From positions 92,258 through 156,257 of the forward strand of contig CAYQMF010000001.1 in assembly GCA_964418595.1 (NCBI GenBank): a stretch of 64,000 nucleotides of DNA, in the 5' to 3' direction. This stretch comes from an uncultured candidatus Brocadiaceae bacterium (GTDB lineage Bacteria > Planctomycetota > UBA1135 > UBA2386). The translations under genes were made by a program, and so were the position numbers. The notes below the pieces were generated by a model, which did not search any database, was not told the DNA's origin, and saw only the letters and a program-made list of their open reading frames with translations. Shown one piece after another: positions 1-63,729 of this stretch; positions within the stretch are counted from its first letter, which is position 1; the number at the start of each line of letters is the position of its first letter.

Positions 1-648
1 GTCGACGCATCGCGGCGCGTGCTCGGGGATCGGCACGTGGAGACGCGCAACGCGATGGGCTCGTTGGCCAGGCAGCTCTCGACCGCGCGGCGCCACGACG
101 AGGCGCTGCATTGGTACGAGGAAGTGCTGCGCTGCTCGGACGATCTGCCCGCCACGGATCCCAAGCTGCTGTTCGCGCGGATCCGCCACGCCGACGGCCT
201 GCGCGCGGTCGGCCGTCTCGACGAAGCCGACGGCGAACTCGGCGCGGCTCGCGAGGTGTGCGAGGGGGCGCTGGGTCCGCACCATGCGCTCACGGGCATG
301 GCGCAACGCATGCAGGCCGACCTCTGGATCGCCCAGGGGCGGCGGGCCGAAGCCGCCGAGCTGGTCGCCGGCATCCTCGCCGCCGCATCCGGCGAGGCCA
401 CCGGCCAGCTCGCACACCTGCGCCTGCGGCACGCCGGCAACCTGCGCGCGCTGGGGCGGCATGCCGAAGCCGAGGCGCAGTTGCGCGACGCGCACGCGTT
501 CTTCGCGGAGGCGCGGGTCGGCGATCCGGCGCTGGGACGCGTGTTCGAGGAGTACGCGGCGCTGACGGAGGCGATGGGCAAGCCCGACGAGGCCGCCGTG
601 TGGCGGGAGCGACTGCAGGCGTGGCGGGCGACGCGCAGCGAGCGGTGA
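1..648 (+). CDS. TPR-repeat protein, C-terminal part (5' end outside the window)
   Basis: Frame 1 is open from nt 1 to the TGA at 646-648 (track ORF 19..648). It has A/L/R/E-rich helical pairs of the TPR kind (EALHWYEEVLRCSDD, AEAEAQLRDAHAFFAEA, EEYAALTEAMGKPDEAAVW). Third codon positions are G/C-dominated. Confidence 0.6.
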   Translation, partial: VDASRRVLGDRHVETRNAMGSLARQLSTARRHDEALHWYEEVLRCSDDLPATDPKLLFARIRHADGLRAVGRLDEADGELGAAREVCEGALGPHHALTGMAQRMQADLWIAQGRRAEAAELVAGILAAASGEATGQLAHLRLRHAGNLRALGRHAEAEAQLRDAHAFFAEARVGDPALGRVFEEYAALTEAMGKPDEAAVWRERLQAWRATRSER

Positions 649-10803: not shown

Positions 10804-12306
10804 TCAGCGCTGATAGATCTCGATGTCGGTCGGGCCGCCGCCCATCACCATCACCGTGCCGTCCGGCAGGTTGGCGGTGACCGGGAACAGCCGCGGCGCC
10901 GCCATGGATCCCGTCGGCGCAAGCGTGTTGGGCCCCTGCGAGAACACGTCGGCCGACGACGTGGCGGTCGCCTCGAAGGTCATGGTGCCGAGGTCGAAGG
11001 TCACCCGGAACCCGCCCGCGATGAGCGCCCGCCCGCCGGGCAGCGCCGCGATGGCCGCACCGGCGCGACCTTCCTGCATGCCGTTGACCGTCGTGAACGT
11101 GCCGAAGCCGAGGAAGCTCGACGTGTAGAGCTGACAGTCGGTGCGCGTGCCGACGATGATGTCGGCGATGTTGAGGGTCTGCAGGAACTGCGTGAGGTCG
11201 AGCGTCAGGCCACCCGCGAGCAGCACCCTCCCGTCGCTCAGCCCGACCGCGCTGTGCAGGAAGCGTGCGCCGTTCATGAACGCGGGCAGGCCGAAGCTGC
11301 CGCTCGTCGGGTTGAAGCGGTACGCCGTCGCCGACACGGTCGGCAGGTTGACGATCGGGATGAGCGTGAGTCCGCCGGTGATGAGCACCTGGCCGTTGCT
11401 GAGGCTGCTCGACGAGTGCAGCGCGCGCGCCTCGAGCATGTTGGGTCCCGGCGCGAACGTGTTCGTCGCGGGATCGAAGATCTCCGTCGACGCGCGGATG
11501 CCCGCGAACAACTGCAGGGGATCGGTGAGCGTCAGGACCTCGAAGCCACCGGTGATGAGCACGCGGCCGTTCCCCATGAGCGAGGCGCCGTGGCCGGCGC
11601 GCGCGATGCCCATCGCCAGCGTCGTCGTCTGCTGGGTGGCGGGGTCGTACACCGCCGCCGCCGCGGTCGGCTGGCCGTCGAGGCCCATGCCGCCGGTGAA
11701 CAGCACGCGGCCATCGGCCAGCCCGGTGGTCTGCGACAGCAGGCCGACGCCGAACGTCACGCCGGAGAGCGTCCAGTCCTCCGTGCGCGACGCGAAGCGC
11801 TGCGCGACCGGACCGGAGCCGCCGACGAAGAGCAACTCGTTGTTCGCGCTGCGCGCCACGCCGCCGCCGAGGATCGGGACCGACGGCTGGTGCAGCGCCC
11901 GCTTGAAGGTGCCCGGCACCTGCGGCGTGATCCGCACGAGGTTCGACGTGACGAGGGGGTCACCGCCGATCGCCTGCAGCGAGAGCACGATGTTCTCGAG
12001 CGCCGGCAGGTCGGGCAGGACGAGGCTCGGTGCCGCCTGACCCGAGGCCGGGAACACGCCGAGGAACCCCGGCAGGGCGAGGCACGCGTCGACGAGTTCG
12101 AGCCCGACGTCGACGGTGATGCCGAGGCCGGGGACCGGCGTCCTGGTCTCGACGGTCGAGAGCAGGAGCAGGTACGGCCCCTGCGCGGGCCCGGTCATCG
12201 GGAAGGTCGACACCCCGGGGACGGCGCCGCCGGTCTTGTCGAGGGTGATCTGGGCGCTCAGCGGGAGCGTGAGCGCGAGAACGCAGGCGAGCTGGGATGG
12301 GCGCAT
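10804..12306 (-). CDS. Secreted Kelch-repeat protein with N-terminal shared module
   Basis: The start is the ATG at 12306 (MRPSQLACVLALTLPLSAQ). The track ORF 10804..13917 is over-extended. Kelch-like blade motifs recur: DGRVLFTGG, NGRVLITGG, NGQVLITGG, DGRVLLAGG, GGRALIAGG, DGTVMVMGG. Confidence 0.8.
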   Translation of the reverse strand: MRPSQLACVLALTLPLSAQITLDKTGGAVPGVSTFPMTGPAQGPYLLLLSTVETRTPVPGLGITVDVGLELVDACLALPGFLGVFPASGQAAPSLVLPDLPALENIVLSLQAIGGDPLVTSNLVRITPQVPGTFKRALHQPSVPILGGGVARSANNELLFVGGSGPVAQRFASRTEDWTLSGVTFGVGLLSQTTGLADGRVLFTGGMGLDGQPTAAAAVYDPATQQTTTLAMGIARAGHGASLMGNGRVLITGGFEVLTLTDPLQLFAGIRASTEIFDPATNTFAPGPNMLEARALHSSSSLSNGQVLITGGLTLIPIVNLPTVSATAYRFNPTSGSFGLPAFMNGARFLHSAVGLSDGRVLLAGGLTLDLTQFLQTLNIADIIVGTRTDCQLYTSSFLGFGTFTTVNGMQEGRAGAAIAALPGGRALIAGGFRVTFDLGTMTFEATATSSADVFSQGPNTLAPTGSMAAPRLFPVTANLPDGTVMVMGGGPTDIEIYQR

Positions 12307-12471
12307 GGGGGGACGGGCGCGTGGGCGGGCGGCGGAGGATCTTGCCACGGAAACCCGACCGTGTCCCAGCCCGGGCGGCGGATCCTCCGCAGGCGCGCGC
12401 AATGACCGATGGCACCGGCCTCCGGCAGCGCCATGTCGGCCCTGGAACGACTCGCTGCTACCCTGCCATGC

Positions 12472-12708
12472 ATGGCCAAGTCCGCATGCCCTCTGTCGCA
12501 AGCCCAGTTCCTCGAACACGCCCAGCCGCTCGAGATCGTCATCAACGGTCAGACGATGCTCGCCGAGGTGAAGGCGTTCTCCACCGGTTCGTTCGGTTGG
12601 TACCTCAACGGCAAGACCATGATCGCCGTCGACGGCAAGCCGGTGTCGGTGCAGATCGGCATGAACCTCACCATCGTCGGCAGCAAGGAGGCCCCGCGCG
12701 GCGGGTGA
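12472..12708 (+). CDS. Small hypothetical protein (78 aa)
   Basis: ATG at 12472 (MAKSACPLSQAQFLEHAQP...). The frame is GC3-rich. The beta-rich core reads KAFSTGSFGWYLNGKTMIAVDGKPVSVQIGMNLTIVGSK. I can name no family. The track ORF starts at 12409. Confidence 0.55.
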   Translation: MAKSACPLSQAQFLEHAQPLEIVINGQTMLAEVKAFSTGSFGWYLNGKTMIAVDGKPVSVQIGMNLTIVGSKEAPRGG

Positions 12709-12744
12709 GCCTTCGCGACGCAACCCCGAAGACGGATTCACACC

Positions 12745-13584
12745 ATGAGCTTCGAGACCAACGAGATCAGCCTCGCGCAGCGCGCGTCCTGGAACAGGTT
12801 CTCCCCCGGCTGGAAGAAGTGGGACGCGCACACGATGGCGTTCCTCGCGCCGCACGGGGACGCGATCGTCGACTACCTCGCCCCCGGCGGCACACAGGTG
12901 ATCCTCGACATCGCCGCGGGCACGGGCGAGCCGGGGCTGAGCATCGCGCGCCGGCTGCGCGGCGGACGCGTCGTGATCACCGACCTCGCCGACGGGATGC
13001 TCGCGGTCGCCAAGGAGAAGGCCGCGCGCGCCGGCGTGACGAACGTGGAGTTCCGCGAGGCCGACGCCTGCGCGCTGCCCTTCCCCGACAACACGTTCGA
13101 CGCGGTGAGCTGCCGGCTCGGCTACATGTTCTTCCCCGACATGGCCATCGCGGCGCGTGAGATGGCGCGCGTGGTCAAGCCGGGCGGCAGGGTGGCGACC
13201 ACCGTGTGGGGCGCGCCGGAGCGCAACTTCTGGGTGACCTGCATGGTGCAGAACATCGGCAAGCACATGGACGTGCCGCCGACGCCGCCCGGCGCGCCGG
13301 GCATGTTCCGCTGCGCGCAGCCGGGGCTGATCGCGGGCTTGTTCAAGACCGCGGGCCTCAGTGGCGTCGCCGAACGCGAGGTGCCCTGCACCGTCGGGCT
13401 CAGCGGGCCGGCGGAGTACTGGGAGATGGTGACGGAGATCTCCGCCCCGTTCGTGGGTCTGCTCAGCAAGGCCGACGCCGCGACCGTGGCGCGGATCAAG
13501 GCGGGCGTCCTCGCCGCCATGGGTGAGCGCCACCCCGACGGCAAGATCCCCGCGTGCGGCATCCTCATCACGGGCCGCAAGTGA
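12745..13584 (+). CDS. Class I SAM-dependent methyltransferase
   Basis: Motif I is VILDIAAGTGEPG. The acidic post-I residue is in VVITDLADGM. Motif III reads FDAVSCRLGYMFFPD. The protein is 279 aa. Confidence 0.85.
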   Translation: MSFETNEISLAQRASWNRFSPGWKKWDAHTMAFLAPHGDAIVDYLAPGGTQVILDIAAGTGEPGLSIARRLRGGRVVITDLADGMLAVAKEKAARAGVTNVEFREADACALPFPDNTFDAVSCRLGYMFFPDMAIAAREMARVVKPGGRVATTVWGAPERNFWVTCMVQNIGKHMDVPPTPPGAPGMFRCAQPGLIAGLFKTAGLSGVAEREVPCTVGLSGPAEYWEMVTEISAPFVGLLSKADAATVARIKAGVLAAMGERHPDGKIPACGILITGRK

Positions 13585-13603
13585 CCATTCGACGGATCCA
13601 CGA

Positions 13604-15682
13604 TCAGCGGATCTTGCCGAGCGCCGCCTGCGCGCGGCTGCGCACCTCGGGCGCGAGCGTCGGTTCACGCAGGAGCGCCTCGAGCACGGGGCGTGCGTCG
13701 GCGGCGCGCCCCTGCCCAACCAGGATCTCGCCGGCGTAGAGGCGAGCGCGGACGCCGGTGGCGTCGACCTGCTCCGCGGCGGGCAGCACGCCCAGAAGAA
13801 CGAGCCAGCGCTGCGCGATCCCCGGCAGCTCCACCGGCGTGAGGCGTCCCGACTCGTGCGCGAACAGGCCGCGCCGCAGTTCGAAGCGTGGGTCCGTCGG
13901 GTAGCGACGCACCGCATCGTCGAGCATGCGGGTGTACGTCTCCGGCGCCACGCGGCCGAGCGTCAGGTCGAGGAGCGCGACGCGCGCGTAGTAGTGGTCG
14001 GGCAGGGCAGCGAGCGTCTCCTGGCACACGGTCACCGCCGCCTCGACCTTGCCGCGCTGTTGCAGGATGCGGATGAGGCCCTCCGCGAGGCGCGCTTGCG
14101 AGCCGGAATGCGCGACGTGCTTCGTCGCCAGCGCCCGGCGCAGGTTCGCCTCCGCGCCCTCGACGTCGCCCTGCGTGGCCAGCAGCGCCGCGAGGTTGCC
14201 GAAGCCGCCGGAGTGCTCCGGGTCTGCGGCGATGGCGCGCTCGAAGTAGGCCCGCGCCCGCGCCGGGTCGGTGCCGAGCAGCGTGTAGCCCGCCTTCACC
14301 TGCAGGTCGGCGCTCGCGGGCGTACGGTCGGCATCGGTGCAGAGCAGCGTCGTCGAGTCGCGCCACGCGCCGTTGCGCGCGAGGATCACCGCTGCGTGTG
14401 CGACGCCGAGCGCGAGCAGGGCGATCACGGCCGCGCGCCGCGCAGGCGAACCTTCGCGCAGCTTCGCCACCGCCCACGCTGCGAACAGGCACACGCCGAG
14501 GCTCGGCACGTAGTAGCCGCGCTCGCCGAAGATCGTGCCGACGGCGACGGGGATGTTCGAACCGATGAACGAGAAGCCGAGGAACACAGTGGCGCCGAGG
14601 AACAGGAGCGGCTGGCGCCGCCGCAACCGAAGCGCGAGCGCGAGCCACGCCCCGAGCACGCCGAGCGCCGCCAGGAAACCCGGCGCCAGCGGCGAAGTGA
14701 GTACTGGCAGGGCGCCAGGCCCGTAGATCGACGAGAGCCCGTACGGGACGACACACTTGAGCAGGCCGAAGCCCAGGAGCGCGACCGCGGTGAGGACGCG
14801 CGGACCGGCGCCGGTGTGGGCGAGCGGGTTGTGTTCGTACGCCGGCAGGTACGCAGCCATGTCGCCGACGACGACCTGGCGCAGCACGAAGAACAGGACG
14901 AGCGGCGGCCCGAGCGCGATGGCCAGCGCCTTGCCTCGCGTGCGCAGGAGCTGCGCGAGCGTCAGTGGCTCGCCGGCGAGCCAGGCCTTCGCCAGCAGAT
15001 GGCAGACGAGGAACGGCGCCCACGCCAGCGCGCTCTCCTTGGCGCCGAAGGTCAGGAAGAAGACGAATGCCGCCGCGGCCACGCGCCCGCGATCGAACAG
15101 GCGCAGGGCCGACAACCCGAGCGCCATGCCCATCGGATCCGCGCGTCCCACGATCCCGGCGACGGACTCGCTGTGGATGCCGCAGACGGCGAACCCGCCC
15201 GCGGCGAGCAGCGCGACGAAGGCGCCCGCGCCGAGGTCGCGCAGCCAGCGCCACACCAGGAACACCGCGAGCACGTGCACCAGCACGTTGAACAGGTGCT
15301 GCGGCAACGCCTCGAGGTTCGCCGGCAGGAGCGGCGCCGCAATCAGGTTGTAGACGAGCGCGAAGCTCAGGATCGTCGTGGGCCGGTACTCGAACGACGC
15401 GGCGGCACTGCCGGCGGTGTACTTCTGGCCGAAGTACCACCAGGGTTCCTTCAGGCCGGCGATGACCTGGTGCGGCTTGCCGTCGGGCCCGACCGCCTGC
15501 GCGAACGACGCGTCGTCGAGCGCGAAGCCGTTGCCGAGCGAGGGCGCAAAGACCAGGAACGCAACGGCGAGGACGACCAGCAGGATCCGCTTCTCGAGAG
15601 GCTCGGGCAAGGCGCGGATCGTAGACGGCGCACGCGCACTAGCCGACGCAACCTTGACGACTTCGCGGCGCACCATCACCAT
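13604..15682 (-). CDS. GT-C-fold membrane glycosyltransferase (PMT/TMTC-like) with C-terminal TPR repeats
   Basis: The start is the ATG at 15682 (MVMVRREVV...), with an alternative ATG at 15721. It has about 11 hydrophobic segments and a first-loop acidic motif, GNGFALDDASF. The C-terminal TPR-like region reads ARAYFERAIAADPEHSGGFGNLAALLATQGDVEGAEANLRRAL. The track ORF 13604..16774 is over-extended. Confidence 0.75.
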   Translation of the reverse strand: MVMVRREVVKVASASARAPSTIRALPEPLEKRILLVVLAVAFLVFAPSLGNGFALDDASFAQAVGPDGKPHQVIAGLKEPWWYFGQKYTAGSAAASFEYRPTTILSFALVYNLIAAPLLPANLEALPQHLFNVLVHVLAVFLVWRWLRDLGAGAFVALLAAGGFAVCGIHSESVAGIVGRADPMGMALGLSALRLFDRGRVAAAAFVFFLTFGAKESALAWAPFLVCHLLAKAWLAGEPLTLAQLLRTRGKALAIALGPPLVLFFVLRQVVVGDMAAYLPAYEHNPLAHTGAGPRVLTAVALLGFGLLKCVVPYGLSSIYGPGALPVLTSPLAPGFLAALGVLGAWLALALRLRRRQPLLFLGATVFLGFSFIGSNIPVAVGTIFGERGYYVPSLGVCLFAAWAVAKLREGSPARRAAVIALLALGVAHAAVILARNGAWRDSTTLLCTDADRTPASADLQVKAGYTLLGTDPARARAYFERAIAADPEHSGGFGNLAALLATQGDVEGAEANLRRALATKHVAHSGSQARLAEGLIRILQQRGKVEAAVTVCQETLAALPDHYYARVALLDLTLGRVAPETYTRMLDDAVRRYPTDPRFELRRGLFAHESGRLTPVELPGIAQRWLVLLGVLPAAEQVDATGVRARLYAGEILVGQGRAADARPVLEALLREPTLAPEVRSRAQAALGKIR

Positions 15683-19865: not shown

Positions 19866-20813
19866 ATGGCAAAGACCAACCCGCCGGACGACGACGCGGA
19901 GATAGCGAAGAAGCTGTTCTTCCAAGAGTTCCTGATCGACTTCCTGGGCGGTCTCGTTCCAGGGATCCTCTTCCTGGTAGCAGCGACGTTCGCTGCAGTC
20001 CCCCCGCTGTTGGCGCTGTTCACGGCGCTCAAGCCGCCGCCCCCGCCAGGTTCGCCAGACCCCGGGCCTGGACAAATGCTACTGGAGGCTCTGTCGAAGA
20101 CGCAGAATACGCCGAGCGCGGTATGGATCAGCGCGTTCGTCATATTCGTACTCCTAGCCTATGTCATCGGCCACCTCTTCTACCGACACGACCTCAAGCG
20201 TGCCGATCGAGCAAGCTTCGCCAGACTAGCAAAGACAGAGGATAACAAGACGGATGAAGGCAAGAAACGCAACCTGGCCTGCTCGAACGTCTCCGAATGC
20301 GAGTTCCCCTATCCCTATTACCATTTGTACCTCCAGCAGCGCGGTCTGACCCATCTCGTCCCCCTAGCCGTCTGGCGCAAGAATCAATTCCACCGTAGCA
20401 AGACCTACATCAACACGCTCAAGATACGTCTCAAGCACTACTATCCCGACAAGTGCGGGACCATTATCAAAAACGAGGCCCACGTCCGCCTAGCGTCGTC
20501 TGCTTGGTATGTCTCACTACTCCTCATTGTCTTGGCTGTCGTGGCCATCGTCGTCGTCGGTGCAGCCCTGATCATCTCTTGGAGTAGGGGTCGGCTCGGT
20601 TCATGGAGCGATTACGCGCTCGCCCATCTGCCGGGTTTCGTAGCTCCAGCTATCGTTCTCGGCATGGCCGCTTTCTCTAGGAAGATCATCAACGGGTTCC
20701 TTCATTACCAACGGTTGCGCGAGGTCTTCTTTGTGCTGGAAACTGCGTTCACAGCCTTTCGCGACAACACCGACCGACTTGATCCGCCATTCCCCCAAGC
20801 GCCCGAAAATTGA
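19866..20813 (+). CDS. Orphan 4-TM membrane protein of unknown function
   Basis: ATG at 19866 (MAKTNPPDDD...); the track starts at GTG 19857. It has two TM pairs (LVPGILFLVAATFAAVPPLLALF and VWISAFVIFVLLAYVIGHLF; AWYVSLLLIVLAVVAIVVVGAALII and FVAPAIVLGMAAF). These flank a ~115-aa basic/aromatic loop. Many codons end in A/T. Confidence 0.65.
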   Translation: MAKTNPPDDDAEIAKKLFFQEFLIDFLGGLVPGILFLVAATFAAVPPLLALFTALKPPPPPGSPDPGPGQMLLEALSKTQNTPSAVWISAFVIFVLLAYVIGHLFYRHDLKRADRASFARLAKTEDNKTDEGKKRNLACSNVSECEFPYPYYHLYLQQRGLTHLVPLAVWRKNQFHRSKTYINTLKIRLKHYYPDKCGTIIKNEAHVRLASSAWYVSLLLIVLAVVAIVVVGAALIISWSRGRLGSWSDYALAHLPGFVAPAIVLGMAAFSRKIINGFLHYQRLREVFFVLETAFTAFRDNTDRLDPPFPQAPEN

Positions 20814-20898
20814 GGCGGAGCTGAGTAAGACGCGGTTTCACAACCTGGTACATGGATGGCACTTGTACTTTTTCCCGGTCTGTGGCTTCGTCTGCGGG

Positions 20899-21550
20899 AT
20901 GGCAAAGCGATTCTCACGAATCCTGAGCGACGAGCAATGGTCAGTCCTGCAGCCGCTGTTCCCCACGCCGAAGGTGCGCAAGGGCAGGAACAAGGGCGGG
21001 CGGCCATGGCGTGGCAACCGCGAGTGCCTCGAGGGGATCATCTGGATCTTGCGCTCGGGAGCGCGATGGCGGGATCTGCCGCCTCCGTTTCCGAGCGGCG
21101 TGACGTGCTGGCGCCGCTTGCGGGATTGGCAGAAGAAGAGAGTCTGGCGAGCGGCCTGGGAGGCGCTGCTCGGTGTTCTGGACGAACGGGGTCGACTCGA
21201 CCTGCAAGAGGCGTACGTGGACGCGACCTTTCGGGCCGCCAGAAAGAGGCGACGGAATTGGCCTCACGAAGCGTGGGAAGGGCACGAAGGCCGAGTTCCT
21301 CGTGAGCCCAGAGGGCGTGCCGCTGGCCGCGGTCAGTGCCCCCGCTTCGGTCGGAGAAACCAAGCTTGTCGAGCCAGTGCTCGAGCAACTCAACGGCAGC
21401 GGCTGCCCGGACCTCTGGCCAGAGATCGTGATCGCGGACAAGGCGTACGACAGCGACGCCCTACGAGACGTCACCGCATCGGTCGGCATCCTCCTGCTTT
21501 CTCCCCATCGGCGGAACCGGCGGCCCGACAAGCGCACGAACGACGCATGA
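20899..21550 (+). pseudogene. IS5-family (DUF4096 + DDE, IS427/IS1031-like) transposase, frame-broken and 3'-truncated
   Basis: The N-terminal part, in the frame of track ORF 20731..21561, reads MAKRFSRILSDEQWSVLQPLFP...LRSGARWRDLPPPFPSGVTCWRRLRDW. Similarity jumps near 21229-21235 to the frame of ORF 21173..21550 (LTKRGKGTKAEFLV...IVIADKAYDSDALR...SPHRRNR). The product ends before the expected C-terminal RWxVE/RYE catalytic region. Confidence 0.8.
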
Positions 21551-21557
21551 GATCGTC

Positions 21558-22382
21558 GTGACGTCGCCGGGCGAACATCGCCGTGGCCTGTCGAAGAGGA
21601 TCTGCGAAGTGATGGGCGGAAGACGAACGGACGCCTCAAGGACCGATCGTGCCGTGACGTGCTGCAGAAGCTGGACGCAGCAGGCTTCCTGCACCTGCCC
21701 CCGAGGCGGCGGCCACCGACGTGCCGGCAACCGATCCAGATCACCGCCCACACAGATCCCCGACCAGCCCCTGCTGCCTTCGGCCCGCGCGACGTTGGCA
21801 CCGAGTGCTTCCAGATCGTCTCGCGTGATGGACACTCCGCCGCGGCGAGGCTGTGGAACGAGTACGTCGAGCGGTACCACTACCTGTGCTACGGCATCCC
21901 CGTCGGACCGCACATCAAGTACTTCGTCCACGTGCATGACGAGCCCATCGCCCTCATAGCCTTCGGCGGAGCCGCATGGAAGACTGCACCTCGCGACCAG
22001 TGGATCGGTTGGTCCAGAGCGCAACGGGAAGCCAACCTGCATCTCGTCGTCAACAACACCCGCTTCCTGATCCTCCCTTGGATTCGCATCGACAACCTCG
22101 CCTCGCGCTTGCTGTCGATCGCCGCAAAGCGACTACCGGAAGACTGGAATCGCCTATGCCTACCGACCGCTTCTCCTTGAGACCTTCGTCCACGCCGAGC
22201 GCCATGCGGGAACGTGCTACCGAGCCGCGAACTGGATCTGCGTCGGCACCACCAAGGGCCGCGGTAAGACCAACCGCAGCAAGAAGGACCGCATCCCCAA
22301 GAAGCTCGTCTCTTTGCTTCCGCTCGTTCGCGATGCACGCGAAAGGCTCGCGGCTGCCGACGCAGGCAATGTCGACCCGTGA
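21558..22382 (+). pseudogene. DUF4338 (DruA-like) gene remnant with at least two frame breaks
   Basis: Family-like segments lie in three frames. These are RRGLSKRICEVMG, then KTNGRLKDRSCRDVLQKLDAAGFLHLPP...VERYHYLCYG...AAWKTAPRDQWIGWS...VVNNTRFLILPWIRIDNLASRLL...EDWN, then YAYRPLLLETFVHAERHAGTCYRAANWICVGTTKGRGK. The breaks are near 21612-21618 and 22150-22153. The N-terminal part is missing. Confidence 0.7.
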
Positions 22383-22660: not shown

Positions 22661-24007
22661 ATGCGCACCCTCCTCCTCGCTGCCCTCGCGGCGTCCCCAG
22701 CCCTGCCCGCCCAACTCACCGTGCGCGAGTACCTCCTCCCGCGCGCCAACGCCTTCCCGCACGACCCTGCGGTCGGGCTCGACGGGATGGTGTGGTACAC
22801 CGACCAGACCAACAGCCGCATCGGTCGCCTCGATCCCGACACGGGGGTGATCGTCGACTTCCCCACCCCCACGCCGAACTCGGGGCCGCACGGCATCACC
22901 GTCACGCCCGACGGGTTCATCTCGTACACCGCGCAGGACACCGGCAGGCTCGGGCGCGTCGATCCGGCGACGGGACGGATCACCGAGTACGTCCTGCCGG
23001 CCAACGCGTCGCGGCCGCACACGCCGATCGCGCACGCGGGCGCGGTGTGGTTCACGGCGCAGACCAACGACACGTTCGGGCGGTTCGATCCGACCAGCAA
23101 TCAGACGCAGGTGTGGTCGGCGCCGAGCGGGTCACGACCGTATGGCATCGCGCCGGCGCCGGACGGATCGCTGTGGATCGCGCTGTTCGGCACGAACAAG
23201 CTCGGGCGCGTCGACACGGCGAACGGCGGGCTCACGCTGTTCGACCTGCCCAACGCAGCCGCGCGACCGCGCCGTCTCGTGGTGGCCAATGACGGGCGGG
23301 TGTACTACAGCGACTACGCGCGCGGCTACCTCGGCCGCCTCGACCCGACGACGCGGCAGGTCCGCGAGTGGCGCTCGCTCGGCACGAGCCCCCGGCCATA
23401 CGGGATCTGGACGGGAACCGACAGCCGCATCTGGTTCAACACGTCGGGCGCCAACCTCATGGTGGCGTTCGACCCGCGCACGGAGCAGATGGAGGCCGTC
23501 CCCATCCCGACCAGTGGCAGCATCGTGCGACACATGGTGTGGGACACGCCCCGCGGTCGCCTGTGGCTGGCGCTGAGTGGAACGCAGCGCATCGGCGAGA
23601 TCCGGCTCGACGTGCCGGTGACGCGGTACGGCAATGCTTGCCCGGGAAGCCTCGGCAACCCCTCGCTCACGACCGCGGGCCTGCCGCGCATCGGGGACAC
23701 CTTCACCGTGGGCGTGAGCAACACGGCAGCACCGGCCGCGGCGCTGTTCCTCGGCGAGTCCGACGCGATGTGGAACAACGTGCCGCTACCGCTCGGGCTT
23801 GGCTTCCTCGGCGCGCCGGCCTGCGCCGTGCACCCGGCGTGGAGCCTGATCGTCTACAACGGCCACGCGGGCGCGGTGCCGATCCAGGTGCCGCTGGCGC
23901 TCGAGCTGGGCGGCGCGCGCCTGTTCTTCCAGTGGGCGCTCGCCGGCGAGCCGGGCTACGCGCTCACGACGACCGCGGCGGCGCGCGTGGTCGTGATCGG
24001 GACCTGA
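22661..24007 (+). CDS. Secreted Vgb (streptogramin lyase)-like beta-propeller protein with C-terminal shared module
   Basis: ATG at 22661 (MRTLLLAALAASPALPAQ). Propeller blades repeat: PHDPAVGLDGMVWYTDQTNSRIGRLD, PHGITVTPDGFISYTAQDTGRLGRVD, PYGIAPAPDGSLWIALFGTNKLGRVD, and others. The last 126 aa begin YGNACPGSLG. The track ORF starts at 22610. Confidence 0.75.
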   Translation: MRTLLLAALAASPALPAQLTVREYLLPRANAFPHDPAVGLDGMVWYTDQTNSRIGRLDPDTGVIVDFPTPTPNSGPHGITVTPDGFISYTAQDTGRLGRVDPATGRITEYVLPANASRPHTPIAHAGAVWFTAQTNDTFGRFDPTSNQTQVWSAPSGSRPYGIAPAPDGSLWIALFGTNKLGRVDTANGGLTLFDLPNAAARPRRLVVANDGRVYYSDYARGYLGRLDPTTRQVREWRSLGTSPRPYGIWTGTDSRIWFNTSGANLMVAFDPRTEQMEAVPIPTSGSIVRHMVWDTPRGRLWLALSGTQRIGEIRLDVPVTRYGNACPGSLGNPSLTTAGLPRIGDTFTVGVSNTAAPAAALFLGESDAMWNNVPLPLGLGFLGAPACAVHPAWSLIVYNGHAGAVPIQVPLALELGGARLFFQWALAGEPGYALTTTAAARVVVIGT

Positions 24008-24062: not shown

Positions 24063-24163
24063 CGCGACACTGAGCGGTGCCGCTCCACGCCGGACGGCCT
24101 CGTTCTCGCCAACGCAGCCCGCGGCTGGTTCTGCCTCGCGCCGCGCGCAAGAAGGATTGCCAG

Positions 24164-58548: not shown

Positions 58549-59673
58549 TCAGAGCCCGGCCTGAAGCGCCAGTGCCGCGAACGCGGTGTCCGCCACCACG
58601 AGGTACGCCTGACCGAGGAAGTCGCAGAACGAACCGTCGGCGCGCTGGGTCTTGACGACGTGGGTGCGCAACCGGGCGCGCAAGCTCTCGCGCTCCGCCT
58701 CCGGCAGCAGCTCGATGGCGAGCGCCGCGTAGTAGTGGCCGAAGAAGTAGAAGTAGCCGGCGTTGGCGTAGTACGCCTCGTGCGGGATCGGACGCATCCG
58801 CGCGACGTCGAGGAAGCGGTGCTCGGTGAAGAAGGCCTCGAGGCCGGCCCGCACGGTAGCGAGGTCGAGACTCTTGTCGTCGGCGCGGATGCGGGCCCAG
58901 TTGCACACCTGGGTCCGGCCGAGGCTGCCCTTCACCCGGTTGATGTGCTCGCCGCCGGTGATGCGTGGCACCGGACTGAGGTCGTACTCGTACGCTCCGC
59001 CGGGGAGCGCGCAGCGCTGCACGTAGGCGAGCGCCCGCTCGACGGGAGCGCGGTCGGTGAGCCAGCCGAGCCGCTCGGCCGCGATGAGCGACGGCAGGAC
59101 GGCGGCCGTGCAGAAGCTCGTCGACCACGTGGGGCGCCGCGAGAACGGCTTGAGGTCGTAGTAGGCGAAGCCGCCGGCAGGCGATTCGTTGTCCAGCAGG
59201 CGCGCGAGAAACTCCTTGCCGCGGGCCGCGAGGGCTTGCTGCTCCGGCTCCGTGAGGCGAGGGTGGTCGGCCGCGTGGGTGCAGACGATGGTGCCGTACA
59301 GGTAGGCCCAGACCGCGTCGTTGTCCCAGTCGCTGCCGCGCAGTGGCATGCGGGCCGCGATGAGCCACTGCACGGCCCGCCGCAGCGCCGCGTCGCGCTC
59401 CGGGGTCGACGGCACTTCGAGCAGCGCGAGCAGCGCGAGCTGGTGCGCACCGACCTGCCACGCGTAGAACGACTCGACCGCGTAGTGCGAGTCCAGCAGG
59501 CCCTCCGTCGACGCGCGCGCCCAGGTTCCGTCCTCGCGCTGCGTCTGCACCAGGAAAGCCACCGCGCGGTCGCGCGCGGCCGCCGCGGCGGCGGCGTCGA
59601 CGGGCTCGGTCGCCGGCGCCGGCGGCGCGTCCTGCGGGAACGCGGACACGAGAAGGAGCGCGGTCAGCAGCAC
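58549..59673 (-). CDS. Exported alpha/alpha-toroid protein (prenyltransferase/squalene-cyclase-like repeats)
   Basis: The GTG at 59673 is preceded by AGGAG and begins 8 nt after the upstream stop. Repeated DG.W/GGF motifs include QTQREDGTWAR, ESPAGGFAYY, LPGGAYEYD and TQRADGSFCDF. Confidence 0.7.
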   Translation of the reverse strand: MLLTALLLVSAFPQDAPPAPATEPVDAAAAAAARDRAVAFLVQTQREDGTWARASTEGLLDSHYAVESFYAWQVGAHQLALLALLEVPSTPERDAALRRAVQWLIAARMPLRGSDWDNDAVWAYLYGTIVCTHAADHPRLTEPEQQALAARGKEFLARLLDNESPAGGFAYYDLKPFSRRPTWSTSFCTAAVLPSLIAAERLGWLTDRAPVERALAYVQRCALPGGAYEYDLSPVPRITGGEHINRVKGSLGRTQVCNWARIRADDKSLDLATVRAGLEAFFTEHRFLDVARMRPIPHEAYYANAGYFYFFGHYYAALAIELLPEAERESLRARLRTHVVKTQRADGSFCDFLGQAYLVVADTAFAALALQAGL

Positions 59674-59680
59674 GGGGCGG

Positions 59681-60322
59681 TCACTCCTGTGCCTGGGCCT
59701 TGGCCAACGCGTTGGTCGCCGTGAGCACGTCACGCTCGCTCTTCAGCTTGGCCAGGGCCAGACCACGCTCGGCCTTGGCCAGAGCGCGGCGACGGTCGGC
59801 CACCTTGCCCTCGAGTTCCTTCACCTTCGCCACGTGTTCGATCTCCTGCTTCGCCGCGAGCGCGGCCTTGCTGAGGGCCAACCGTCGCTCCGCGACCTCG
59901 ACCTGCCGCCGGCCGCGCTGGAGCACCAGCTCCTTGGTCATCGCGGCGAACTGGTCGGCCTTGTACATCGCCTCGAGCTCCGCGAGTTCGGCGCGCGCTT
60001 CCTCGGAGCGGTAGACCGCCTCGTCGTGCGAGAGGCGCGCGTTCTCCAGTTCGTGAGGCGCGGTCCGCTCGACGAACGCAGCGAGTTCACGCTCGGCATC
60101 GGCCAGCTCCGTCTGCGCCTTCGCGATCTCGGCCTGGGCGTCGACGAGCTGCTGCTCGCGCTCCGTCTCGGCGATGACGAGGGCGACCCGCGCTTCCGCG
60201 ATCGACCGTTCCTTCTCGGCCGGAGCGGACTTGGGTGCGGGCGAGCCGTCGGTCGGCACCCCCGAACAGCCGAGGGCACCGAAGAGCAGGAGGGGGACGA
60301 CGACGCGGTGCAGCGCGAGCAT
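59681..60322 (-). CDS. Coiled-coil lipoprotein
   Basis: The lipobox reads MLALHRVVVPLLLFGALGCSG. The rest consists of long A/E/K/R/L heptad-like helices reminiscent of periplasmic adaptor hairpins. Confidence 0.7.
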   Translation of the reverse strand: MLALHRVVVPLLLFGALGCSGVPTDGSPAPKSAPAEKERSIAEARVALVIAETEREQQLVDAQAEIAKAQTELADAERELAAFVERTAPHELENARLSHDEAVYRSEEARAELAELEAMYKADQFAAMTKELVLQRGRRQVEVAERRLALSKAALAAKQEIEHVAKVKELEGKVADRRRALAKAERGLALAKLKSERDVLTATNALAKAQAQE

Positions 60323-60404: not shown

Positions 60405-62273
60405 TCAGAAGATGTAGACGCCGGTCGACTGGCTCAGGTACACGCTGCCCGCACTCGGCACGACGATGGCCTGGAACGCGACCTCGAGCCCGCGCAGGCC
60501 CGGATCGTCCGGCACCGGGAACCGCAATGCGCCGTGGCCCTGCAGCATCGGCGCCGGCAACGCGCCGAGCGGCAGCATCGCGGCGGGGTCGAGTTCGAGT
60601 TCGCCGAGACCGGTGATCGGCGTCGGCACCGTGAGGATGCGCGTGCCGAGGAAGAAGAACCCCGTGCCCGGACCCGGCCCCTGCACCCGCACGTCGATGT
60701 CGCTACCGCCCACGAAGACCCGATGGAAGTCCGGATACTGCCAGAGCGTGAGCACGTCCGGGTCGGCGGAGAAGCCGTAGATCGCATTGGGAAGGTCGAG
60801 GCGGCCGCTCTCCGAGTTCGCCCGCCCGCCGATCGGCGCCTGCGGCAACGCCGTGCTCTCGATCCGCCCGTTGAAGGTGCCGAACCCCAGCGCGCGGGCG
60901 CCGGCCGTGTCGGTGACGGTCAACGTGGTGCGCCAGATCGCGATCTGTGGCACGCCGACGAGCGTCTCCGTCAACCAGCGCTCGCGGCGCGCGTCGTAGA
61001 CGAAGAGCGTCGCGCCATCGACCGCGGCGAGGATGGCGCTCGAGGCGTTCACCTGGGTGGTGGCCCCCACCCCTGCGGCCACGCGCGTGATGCGGCCCGT
61101 GCGACCGCTGAAGGCAGCCAACCCGGTCTGCGTGCGGAACAGCGCCGAGGTCTCACACAGCTCCGGCAGCAGGGGCAACGCGTCGGCAGGACCGTCGAAC
61201 CACCGGCCGAGCACCGCCGAGTACAGCTTGAACGCGCCACTCTGCGTCACCATCGACGCGACGGCGCGGGACACGGACGTGGTGCTGACCGCGCCGAGCA
61301 CGGTCGCGGTGGCACCGGTGATCGCGCTGAACGCGTGCACGCGATCGGGGAGCGACAGCAACACCGACGCGGCCCCGACTTGCACGATCGGGTTCGTGGC
61401 GCTCGGCAGCGCGATCCATTGGGCACGCACCGCGGAGTACGCCCAGCTCTGGCCGGTTCCGTCCGCGAGGTAGACGACCGTCTCGCTGAGCTGCGTCGTG
61501 GCGGACGGCGATGCGACCTGCGACGCGAAGGTGGACCGCAGGCCGCTGAAGGCAACCCACGTGCCCGCATCGGCGGCGAGCGCAAGATCATCGCCGTACG
61601 ACCAGCTCGGACTCGCGCCTGGAGCGGCGTGCGTCGCCCACGTGTTGCGCATCGCCGAGAAGCCGTGGATCGAGCTTCCAGCCAGCACGACGCCAGCGGT
61701 TCCCCCCGCGTGTACGTAGGTCCCGGCCGACGCGGCCTGCCGGGCAACCCAGTTGCCGTGGAAGGCCGACATCCCGAACAGGCTGGTACCGTCGACGACG
61801 AGCGCCGTGTGCCGTTCGACCTGCGCGATCGCATTGCCCCCGACCTGCAGCCGCGTCCACGCGCCCGCAAACGCGTTGAACGCCCAGATGTCGCCGCCAT
61901 CGCGGATGAGCCAGATCGAGTCGTTCTTCTGGTTCGCGGGGTTGATCAACTGCGCACCGCCGCTCAAGGTCACCGACTGCCACTCCCCGGTGTACGCGGA
62001 GAACGCGTGGAACGTGGGCATCGCCGTGGCCAACACCGAGTCGTTGCTCACGCGCACCGTGGCGCCGACCACGGGTCGGCTCGCCCAGCGGCGGGCGAAC
62101 CCGGAGTACGCGTGGACCTGCCCGCTCTCGACATACGAAATGACCTTGCCAAGGGACTGGATGTTGATGGTCTGCACGCCGCCGGGCACCGCGAGGGCTG
62201 TCCATGCGGGCTGGGTCTGCGCGCACGCGCCGGCGACCAGGAGCGTGGCGAGGAGACTGGGAATCGTGCGCAT
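60405..62273 (-). CDS. Secreted protein with 13 tandem ~37-aa repeats and C-terminal shared module
   Basis: ATG at 62273 (MRTIPSLLATLLVAGACAQ). The repeat anchor is h-(A/G)-(F/Y)-S-x-x-x-G-x-W. See the findings. Confidence 0.8.
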   Translation of the reverse strand: MRTIPSLLATLLVAGACAQTQPAWTALAVPGGVQTINIQSLGKVISYVESGQVHAYSGFARRWASRPVVGATVRVSNDSVLATAMPTFHAFSAYTGEWQSVTLSGGAQLINPANQKNDSIWLIRDGGDIWAFNAFAGAWTRLQVGGNAIAQVERHTALVVDGTSLFGMSAFHGNWVARQAASAGTYVHAGGTAGVVLAGSSIHGFSAMRNTWATHAAPGASPSWSYGDDLALAADAGTWVAFSGLRSTFASQVASPSATTQLSETVVYLADGTGQSWAYSAVRAQWIALPSATNPIVQVGAASVLLSLPDRVHAFSAITGATATVLGAVSTTSVSRAVASMVTQSGAFKLYSAVLGRWFDGPADALPLLPELCETSALFRTQTGLAAFSGRTGRITRVAAGVGATTQVNASSAILAAVDGATLFVYDARRERWLTETLVGVPQIAIWRTTLTVTDTAGARALGFGTFNGRIESTALPQAPIGGRANSESGRLDLPNAIYGFSADPDVLTLWQYPDFHRVFVGGSDIDVRVQGPGPGTGFFFLGTRILTVPTPITGLGELELDPAAMLPLGALPAPMLQGHGALRFPVPDDPGLRGLEVAFQAIVVPSAGSVYLSQSTGVYIF

Positions 62274-62389: not shown

Positions 62390-63559
62390 TCAGTACACAC
62401 GCACGACGACGTCCGCGAGGTCGACACCTTCCACGACTTCCACCTCGGCCCAGCCCGCGACCTGCGTGGACTCTTCCACCGGCGCGGCCTGCGGCGAGCG
62501 TGGTCGCGGCCGCTGGGCGAACGCCTCGATCCGGACCAGGCCCGGTGGCACGAGATCCAGCTCGAACGCACCCTTGCTGTCGGTGTAGGCCCCCGCGTCG
62601 CCGCGCGGCCCGTGCGGGTGTTCGACGTAGGCCGAGACCACTGGTGCGTCGTTGTCGGCGCGCACCACGACCCCACGCACCCGCGCGCTGCGCGTCACGC
62701 GCAGCGTGACGGCCTGGTCGCCGGCGGTCACCAGGGTCGAACGGTGGGTGTATCCGGGCGGCAACCCGGCGACGAGGATGCGCGCGCGCGTCGGCGGCGC
62801 CGGCAGGTGGTCCAGATAGAAGACGCCGTCGTCGAGCGGTTTCGCATGCAGGCCCGGGACCCGGAACGCGCGAAGGAGCAAGCCCGTCGCGGCGATCGCG
62901 TCCGGCAGGACGAGCCGACCGGTGACGGGGCGCGTGGTGTGCAACTGGAGCACCACGTCGTGGTCGGCCACGACCTGCACGTCTTCCGTGCGCACGGCGA
63001 ACCCCTCCGCCCACGCACGCAACGCGTAGAAGGTGTTCGACGACGAGAGGCCGTCGACCTCGAAGCCACCCCGCGCGTCGCACGTCGCCTCCGCCAGGAG
63101 CACTCCGTAGCGGTCGCTCAGGACGTGCACGTGGGCGCCCGCAATGCCCGTGTCGCCGGCGCGGAGGATGCGACCCGTCATCTTCATCGGCGTGCCGAAC
63201 TCGAGCGACGCGCGGCCGCGCTCCGGGTCGAGGTGCGCCCACGCGATCCCGTGTGCGGGTGCGCGCGCGACGATCTGCCCCGGCCTACCGTCGAGGCGAG
63301 CCAGCGGCACGGCGACGTGGCCGTTGGCGTCGAACTCGACGCGCCCGAGCGAAGCCGGCGGGTACTCGCCCCCGCCCGACGCGTCGTAGGGGTACAGCTC
63401 GGCGACGAGTCCGGTCTGGTCGAGGGTCACGCCCGAGAACCCGACGGCCTCCACCGCGAGCACGGCGGGAAGGAGCGCACGCACGGCGAACACGGCCAGC
63501 GCGGCGGCGATCAGGGCCGGCACGCCGTAGCGCAGGGTGACCGGCATGTTGCGGAGCAT
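62390..63559 (-). CDS. Membrane-anchored CarboxypepD_reg-like repeat protein
   Basis: I prefer the ATG at 63559 (MLRNMPVTLRYGVPALIAAALAVFAV...); alternatives are 63547 and 63646. Repeat starts are MTGRILRAGDTGIAGAHV, VTGRLVLPD and VRGVVVRADNDAPVVSAYV. It also has a TDSKGAFELD turn. Confidence 0.7.
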   Translation of the reverse strand: MLRNMPVTLRYGVPALIAAALAVFAVRALLPAVLAVEAVGFSGVTLDQTGLVAELYPYDASGGGEYPPASLGRVEFDANGHVAVPLARLDGRPGQIVARAPAHGIAWAHLDPERGRASLEFGTPMKMTGRILRAGDTGIAGAHVHVLSDRYGVLLAEATCDARGGFEVDGLSSSNTFYALRAWAEGFAVRTEDVQVVADHDVVLQLHTTRPVTGRLVLPDAIAATGLLLRAFRVPGLHAKPLDDGVFYLDHLPAPPTRARILVAGLPPGYTHRSTLVTAGDQAVTLRVTRSARVRGVVVRADNDAPVVSAYVEHPHGPRGDAGAYTDSKGAFELDLVPPGLVRIEAFAQRPRPRSPQAAPVEESTQVAGWAEVEVVEGVDLADVVVRVY

Positions 63560-63729
63560 CTGCGCGCGCGTCGGCCGAGGCAGCGGCCGCGGTCGGCGGC
63601 CGCGGTCGTTGGTGGGTGCAGGCACGGAGGAAGCGTAGCGAGACATCGGGGCGAAGCCCGCCCAACGCTCCCGATGGGATCGGGTTCAGGCGGCGGGATG
63701 GGTCCGGCTGCGTGCATACTGCGCGGGCG

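Follow-up and report, generated by a model that had tools for sequence, protein, structure and literature searches.

The DNA window analysed here is a stretch of 64,000 nucleotides from an uncultured candidatus Brocadiaceae bacterium of the phylum Planctomycetota (assembly GCA_964418595.1, contig CAYQMF010000001.1, positions 92,258 to 156,257), and the object of the analysis is a minus-strand gene in it, which encodes a protein of 622 amino acids (aa) with 13 tandem repeats. Structure prediction suggests that these repeats are four-stranded beta-propeller blades, which probably make up one wide ring with the N-terminal strand serving as velcro on blade 13, in an exported protein that may be a binding platform. 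The coordinates of the gene and its parts are listed in Table 1.

A preliminary description of the window reported 13 tandem repeats of about 37 aa with an h-A-F-S-x-x-x-G-x-W anchor (h, hydrophobic residue) in the span 60744..62141, which corresponds to aa 45–510 of the protein. All 13 quoted anchor strings were found, each of them once, starting at aa 53, 88, 129, 165, 202, 239, 276, 312, 348, 385, 423, 461, and 498, with spacings of 35, 41, 36, 37, 37, 37, 36, 36, 37, 38, 38, and 37 aa; the (A/G)(F/Y)S positions given there (aa 55 to 500) and their spacing of 35–41 aa agreed exactly with our recount. Self-similarity of aa 21–520 scored by lag with the BLOSUM62 matrix had its maxima at lags of 37, 73, and 110 aa, with respective z values of 4.7, 4.4, and 3.6, while the maximum z at any lag in 1,000 shuffles was 4.6. 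For comparison between the repeats, about 127 full-length homologues were aligned, the 13 units were excised from this alignment, and the resulting unit alignments were compared pairwise by hhalign, which gave probabilities mostly above 90%, unit 13 being the most divergent. At the level of sequence, all 13 units are homologous to one another. Chance or a compositional artefact was also considered as the source of the repeats and is excluded by the shuffled periodicity and the unit-versus-unit comparison. A hidden Markov model (HMM) of the pooled units, with the consensus AAATVTAGSAVALVDDGTTLHAFSALTGTWTSLPAPA, detected the 13 units and one N-terminal partial match at aa 23–31, which comprises the last strand of the unit alone. 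The first-strand segments of blades 3 and 10 are irregular (aa 103–119 and 361–375), and small residues (Ala, Gly, Ser, and Thr) account for 45% of the repeat region.

The GC content at codon positions 1, 2, and 3 of 60405..62273 is 0.64, 0.56, and 0.91, respectively, in a genome with an overall GC of 72%. The third-position value and the presence of full-length homologues show that this is a real gene. A word-indexed homologue search at the 90% clustering level retrieved 15 relatives, and a second search with the 127-sequence alignment as the query returned the same 15 proteins and added none. The sole named relative is "MAG: hypothetical protein [Phycisphaerales bacterium]" (MBK9129652.1); Phycisphaerales is thus the only taxon label, and the family has no annotation. 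In an exhaustive profile search at 50% clustering, the representatives numbered 927 at E ≤ 0.001, 264 at 1e-10, and 158 at 1e-30. Almost every one of the best 150 was 610–660 aa long and aligned end to end in a single stretch, and the number of units was constant at 13 throughout the family. Judged from these alignments, the family is an old, fixed architecture with 13 units and not the product of a recent repeat amplification. Two scans of genome contigs revealed no relative, the NCBIfam search with the protein gave no match, and nothing significant was obtained in PDB sequence searches with the protein, the family profile, and the natural-unit profile.

The AlphaFold2 model of the full-length protein, built from 14–15 sequences, had a predicted local distance difference test score (pLDDT) of 89.3 and a predicted template modelling score (pTM) of 0.88. 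In the DSSP assignment, aa 24–509 contain about 52 short strands, which fall into 13 groups of four. Each unit consists of strand A; strand B, a hydrophobic run ending in D-G; strand C, carrying h-h-A-F-S; a turn of four residues, the last of them Gly; and strand D, starting from Trp. The anchor thus spans strands C and D with the turn between them. A Foldseek search of the PDB with this model gave 885 matches at E ≤ 0.001; the best 50 were nearly all beta-propellers, and matches to propeller proteins reached a probability of 1.0 and E of about 1e-15. Thus, the model combines repeated four-stranded antiparallel meanders with a Foldseek probability of about 1 to propellers, as expected for the beta-propeller fold.

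We read the blades as shortened and very diverged Kelch-like propeller blades related to Kelch by remote homology and lying outside the Pfam Kelch families, because the anchor reproduces the aromatic-to-Trp spacing of seven residues in the Kelch motif Y-D-x5-W and repeat 11 reads V-Y-D-A-R-R-E-R-W. In the unit columns, a hydrophobic run occupies positions 11–14, Phe or Tyr is found at position 23 in 86% of cases, and Trp or Phe at position 30 in 75%; the 7-residue Tyr-Trp spacing is present, and D (38%)-G (45%) stands in place of the Kelch GG doublet. None of the 15 natural members reached a Pfam gathering cutoff (the protein of the window scored 18 bits versus 50 on PF24681), and sub-threshold matches to PF24681 and Kelch_6 were found in 7 of them, with a best E of 1e-4. 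The family consensus also remained below the cutoffs (26.6 of 50 bits on PF24681 and 19.4 of 25.3 on Kelch_6). An artificial concatemer of seven copies of the unit consensus exceeded them for Kelch_6 (38.7 versus 25.3), Kelch_4 (36.6 versus 21.6), and Kelch_1 (30.4 versus 20.1), and its Pfam match was located on the anchor. The weak PDB sequence matches of the family profile included one propeller protein only, a Kelch protein aligned at repeat 11. No WD40 family was matched in the Pfam scans of the members, the consensus, or the concatemer, and similarity to WD40 proteins was limited to the fold level, with 8%–12% identity.

Origin from the PQQ-like/BamB propeller lineage instead of a Kelch-like one is very improbable. 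The concatemer does pass the PQQ_2 cutoff by a narrow margin (28.7 versus 27.6 bits), the Foldseek matches of a fragment model described below include BamB and tetrathionate hydrolase, and the Ala...Gly...Trp pattern of the units is reminiscent of the tryptophan-docking motif. However, the Ala-to-Trp distance is 8 compared to 10 in A-x-D-x-x-T-G-x-x-x-W, the PQQ models PF13360 and PF01011 were matched by none of the 15 natural members, whose sub-threshold matches are to Kelch models, and the concatemer scores better on the Kelch models than on PQQ_2. The "new beta-repeat" of the preliminary description can therefore be kept as a propeller-type beta-repeat but not as a new kind of repeat, given the Kelch spacing, the weak Kelch matches in 7 of 15 members, and the concatemer scores. 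Likewise, its 37-aa period is indeed short for a propeller blade but does not fall outside the range of such blades, and there was no indication of the solenoid offered there as the alternative fold. Two outcomes had been named there that would refute this inference, namely a significant profile match to an existing repeat family and a predicted ordinary propeller: no curated Pfam or NCBIfam cutoff was reached by the natural members, and the predicted arrangement of the blades differs from ordinary propellers according to Foldseek and the fragment model.

The top matches of the full model in the PDB were all 14-blade tandem propellers (E of about 1e-15), which aligned with a template modelling score (TM) of 0.15–0.21 and a root-mean-square deviation (rmsd) of 17–25 Å. 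Against single 7- and 8-blade targets in a viral structure library, alignments covered about 300–420 columns with an rmsd of 12–15 Å and a target-normalised TM of 0.21–0.30. These values argue against a canonical closed seven-blade ring, since such a ring is expected to superpose on single-propeller targets at 3–5 Å. The fragment comprising the N-terminal strand and blades 1–7 (aa 20–295) was predicted separately (pLDDT 93.3, pTM 0.89), and its seven blades aligned to Fbw7, Hsv2/Atg18, BamB, G-beta, and the designed propeller Tako8 with an rmsd of 11–14 Å and a TM of 0.30–0.37. Because of this poor superposition on closed propellers, the seven consecutive blades 1–7 form an open arc in the predicted structure. 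In a crude geometric simulation, a 7-blade arc taken from a 13-blade ring deviated from a closed 7-blade ring by about 11 Å, while arcs from rings of 6–9 blades deviated by no more than 6 Å.

Two ordinary propellers in tandem (7+6 or 6+7 blades, on the pattern of EML TAPE, Aip1, Utp21, and BT4663-type sensors), followed by a beta-sandwich, are an unlikely explanation of the same data. Thirteen blades are compatible with a 7+6 division, the best PDB matches of the full model are all tandem propellers, including the BT4663/BT4673 sensors and PorZ with their C-terminal beta-sandwich, and the residue couplings between blades 6 and 7 and between blades 7 and 8 are the weakest among adjacent blades. 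On the other hand, the fragment of blades 1–7 stays open with its velcro strand disordered, none of the single-propeller targets could be superposed on a part of the full model (target-normalised TM ≤ 0.30), and tandem WD40 proteins aligned in register gave a TM of only about 0.19. In addition, the hairpin coupling 275–288 indicates that blade 7 retains its own fourth strand.

In the single-ring arrangement, the 13 blades would curve gently into one wide ring without splitting into two propellers of 6–8 blades, and the ring would be closed by the N-terminal strand, supplying the fourth strand that blade 13 does not have. This lone strand of the D type matches only positions 29–37 of the unit HMM, the part corresponding to strand D. 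In the full-length model, aa 24–28 are a strand with a pLDDT of about 92, and in the model of blades 1–7 the same residues are coil with a pLDDT of 72. The would-be fourth strand of blade 13 (aa 507–509) would instead lead into the C-terminal domain, which would pack on blades 12 and 13.

Direct coupling analysis (DCA), both mean-field and pseudolikelihood, was performed on 163 sequences (about 143 effective) over about 600 columns and was noisy; many of the top couplings join highly conserved columns and may reflect co-conservation instead of contact. It recovered hairpins and contacts between the adjacent blades 2|3, 4|5, 9|10, and 11|12. Weak couplings were found for the pair 26–55 and, connecting the N-terminus and blade 1 with blade 13, for the pairs 26–497 and 45–500. 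The coupling 507–530 joins the would-be fourth strand of blade 13 to the C-terminal domain. Interleaved two-ring topologies, with blades 3–9 or 5–11 inserted, were also considered and are unlikely: adjacent-blade couplings are present at the breaks that they require, and no contiguous closed ring was detected.

An open arc or a shallow, solenoid-like superhelix of 13 blades that does not close is a further explanation, to which we assign a low probability. The low curvature of both models is equally expected for it, the couplings between blades 13 and 1 are weak, and the rmsd to 8-blade targets (about 11–12 Å versus 8 Å simulated for a planar arc of a 13-blade ring) leaves room for an out-of-plane pitch. 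However, the lone N-terminal strand of the D type is ordered only in the model that includes the C-terminal half, blade 13 has no fourth strand of its own, the pTM of 0.88 corresponds to a single rigid body, and the repeat number is fixed at 13 in the family, as for a closed object.

Several points weigh against a single ring of Kelch-like blades in a binding protein. The ring was deduced indirectly, from Foldseek statistics, secondary structure, and the fragment model, the AlphaFold2 input was small, and all top Foldseek matches of the full model are double propellers. The signals for blades 6|7, 7|8, and 13|1 are weak in the noisy DCA, which leaves ring closure unproven by this method, and we know of no solved structure with a single-chain ring of 13 blades. 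The Kelch kinship is based on sub-threshold matches and an artificial consensus concatemer, and the natural-unit profile had no significant match among PDB sequences. Finally, the function has no direct support because the gene neighbourhood is not conserved at the five distant loci compared (among loci L001–L010).

Outside the blades, conservation is seen in the linker following blade 13, with the pattern Q-x-P-x-F-x-R, in which Q512, P514, F516, and R518 are invariant in the homologue alignment; residues 512–515 have low pLDDT. Per-blade structural conservation concerns the Ser of A-F-S, the Gly, the Trp, and the D-G pair, and the A-to-B turns of blades 1–4, 6, 12, and 13 carry additional conserved polar residues (K43, N77/D78, N117/D118, R154, D229, R448/T449, and N486-S487-E488). 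In the single-ring arrangement, the latter would form a polar belt along the inner rim, on one face of the ring. DCA gave strong couplings of the linker with R448, N486–E488, N77, and N117/D118, and the columns of the belt and the linker are the strongest inter-coupled ones, through either contact or joint conservation. The belt would anchor the linker and the C-terminal domain or form a ligand site.

The C-terminal part of the protein is modelled as a separate beta domain of at least seven strands (aa 525–620, pLDDT 72–89) with the motifs GLGxLxLDP and vPddPaLrGlxxxfQAlv, and DCA shows an enrichment of contacts between it and blades 12 and 13. The Pfam search with aa 519–622 gave no match, and a homologue search with this domain alone found nothing, possibly due to a stop codon in the query. 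Weak matches to the HMM of the domain were obtained in two further secreted propellers of the window and at the C-terminus of a 998-aa protein at locus L001; judged by these copies, the domain appears to be an accessory module, without a name so far, that belongs to the secreted propellers of this lineage. One of the two proteins of the window is a 448-aa secreted propeller of the Vgb_lyase type (22661..24007, plus strand; Pfam E 1.2e-52), of which the last 90 or so aa weakly match the domain (E 7e-4 among six-frame open reading frames [ORFs]). The other is a 500-aa secreted protein (10804..12306, minus strand) with a weak copy directly after the signal peptide (aa 42–113; E 5e-5) and canonical Kelch repeats after that copy (Kelch_4, E 3.4e-14; Kelch_6, E 4.8e-12); the listed ORF 10804..13917 is probably an over-extension of this gene.

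The protein has a predicted Sec signal peptide, MRTIPSLLATLLVAGACA, followed by Q, which comprises a charged n-region, a hydrophobic core of 13 residues, and an AxA motif. Homologues keep the hydrophobic N-terminus and the dipeptide AQ, Q19 being nearly invariant, and residues 1–18 have a pLDDT below 50 in the AlphaFold2 model. An N-terminal signal peptide with an AxA site that is kept in homologues characterizes Sec substrates, and export across the inner membrane is supported by these features. The preliminary description had considered the protein secreted and located on the cell surface; export is borne out by the signal peptide, while the surface location is not, as the features support crossing of the inner membrane only. 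Reading the protein as a lipoprotein was rejected, since the Cys is not conserved in the family and no lipobox is present.

With low confidence, the protein could be a non-enzymatic binding platform located in the periplasm or outside the cell. No signal of a catalytic domain was found in it, and no operon partner was found at the loci examined. We tentatively consider it possible that the protein is a natural single-chain, closed 13-blade propeller of miniaturised Kelch-like blades, in which the linker and the C-terminal domain, not described before, are docked on the polar belt of the inner rim and the wide central opening could be a collar or a polymer-binding site in the planctomycete envelope.

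The gene upstream (62390..63646, minus strand) encodes a CarboxypepD_reg protein, which is kept (locus L008, 1543..2700) next to a 74%-identical relative. A larger CarboxypepD_reg protein (locus L009, 2729..5098) is encoded convergently to a 34%-identical relative, and such a neighbour is absent from four other loci. Downstream are genes for a secreted squalene-hopene-cyclase-like protein of the prenyltransferase fold (58549..59733, minus strand) and for a coiled-coil protein of 213 aa that carries the lipoprotein-type signal LFGALGC (59681..60322, minus strand), which overlap by about 50 bases as listed. At two loci with distant relatives, a conserved NUDIX - Omp85/BamA - DnaB block is located on the opposite strand a few genes from the family gene (L001, 10817..16269; L005, 4627..10736); this proximity is lineage synteny and not an operon.

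Elsewhere in the window, a 1,052-aa protein with a lipoprotein-like N-terminus (24077..27235, plus strand) carries an unusual combination of three PASTA domains (E 2.6e-34) and a MACPF/perforin domain (E 4.7e-14). The region 20001..22000 has a GC content of 0.62 compared to about 0.70–0.75 in the rest of the window, and no Rfam families were found in the window.

Table 1. Positions of the gene and of the predicted parts of its product in the window
Feature	Coordinates	Strand	Basis
Complete gene for the 622-aa protein	60405..62273	minus	ORF list; stop codon 60405..60407
Predicted Sec signal peptide, aa 1–18, cleavage A16-C17-A18 / Q19	62220..62273	minus	n-region charge, hydrophobic core, AxA
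Lone D-type strand, aa 22–31 (PAWTALAVPG; W24 conserved), proposed velcro strand of blade 13	62181..62210	minus	models, unit HMM
Thirteen predicted four-stranded blades, 35–41 aa each	60729..62174	minus	anchors, periodicity, hhalign, DSSP (about 52 strands)
Unit bounds (aa), blades 1–7: 34–70, 69–105, 110–146, 146–182, 183–219, 220–256, 257–293			
Unit bounds (aa), blades 8–13: 293–329, 329–365, 366–402, 404–440, 442–478, 479–515			
Linker L-W-Q-Y-P-D-F-H-R, aa 510–518, blade 13 to C-terminal domain	60720..60746	minus	conservation, DCA
Predicted C-terminal beta domain, about 105 aa (aa 519–622), no named family	60408..60719	minus	model, DCA

If the single-ring structure is true, the range of 4–12 blades would be extended by a conserved bacterial family whose single chain carries a fixed number of 13 short blades, more than in any propeller determined by experiment. 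Such a family would also be a natural test case for the setting of ring size by blade length and wedge angle, which is relevant to the design of repeat proteins. If the protein consists of two ordinary propellers instead, it would be simply a divergent Kelch-like hypothetical protein. At 50% identity, the family forms at least 158 clusters that carry no annotation, and it reveals an unnamed beta domain that appears to be common to several secreted propellers of the genome.

Like Kelch propellers (Kelch_1-6, PF24681; galactose oxidase, Keap1), the protein would have four-stranded blades and a velcro-type closure, and its units share the hydrophobic second strand ending in x-G, the aromatic residue of strand C, and the Trp of strand D seven residues on. 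Moreover, the accessory beta domain of the protein has a weak copy in the canonical secreted Kelch protein of the window. The differences concern the length of the units (35–41 aa versus 44–56 aa in Kelch), the DG in place of GG, and the number of blades, the predicted curvature of the 13-blade ring being far lower than that of Kelch propellers with 5–7 blades. PQQ-like/BamB propellers, which are periplasmic, likewise have short blades with an Ala...Gly...Trp girdle, and they were matched by the fragment in Foldseek, but they are closed rings of 8 blades with a motif spacing two residues off that of the units here. The sensor domains of BT4663/BT4673 and PorZ are likewise exported and contain many short blades followed by a beta-sandwich (Foldseek E of about 1e-14). 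However, they consist of two closed 7-blade propellers, and their TM to the model is 0.15–0.18 with an identity of 7%–10%; Pfam searches of the 622-aa protein gave no Reg_prop or Y_Y_Y match.

Among large propellers, the Vps10 domain of sortilin has 10 blades in a single chain. Ph1500 reaches 12 blades by oligomerisation, and twelve is given as the largest number known for a propeller (10.1101/2022.03.13.484165); the natural range is given as 4–12 blades (10.1101/2021.04.09.438948). Sortilin and Ph1500 are both toroids of four-stranded blades above the usual number of 6–8, as proposed here, but 13 blades in one chain are proposed for the protein of the window, which shows no sequence similarity to them. 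Single rings of 13 and 14 blades (A0A2N2ZE83 and A0A9D1M187, respectively) in the AlphaFold Protein Structure Database have been described in a preprint among confidently predicted propellers with a TM below 0.5 to known ones, and no family, taxon, or function is given for them there (bioRxiv 10.64898/2026.05.19.725729). By this description, they may be comparable to the protein studied here, the model of which likewise gave low TM values to the propellers matched in Foldseek. The predicted 13-blade wide-ring architecture would lie outside the solved propellers, with 13-blade rings of this kind already pictured in that preprint.

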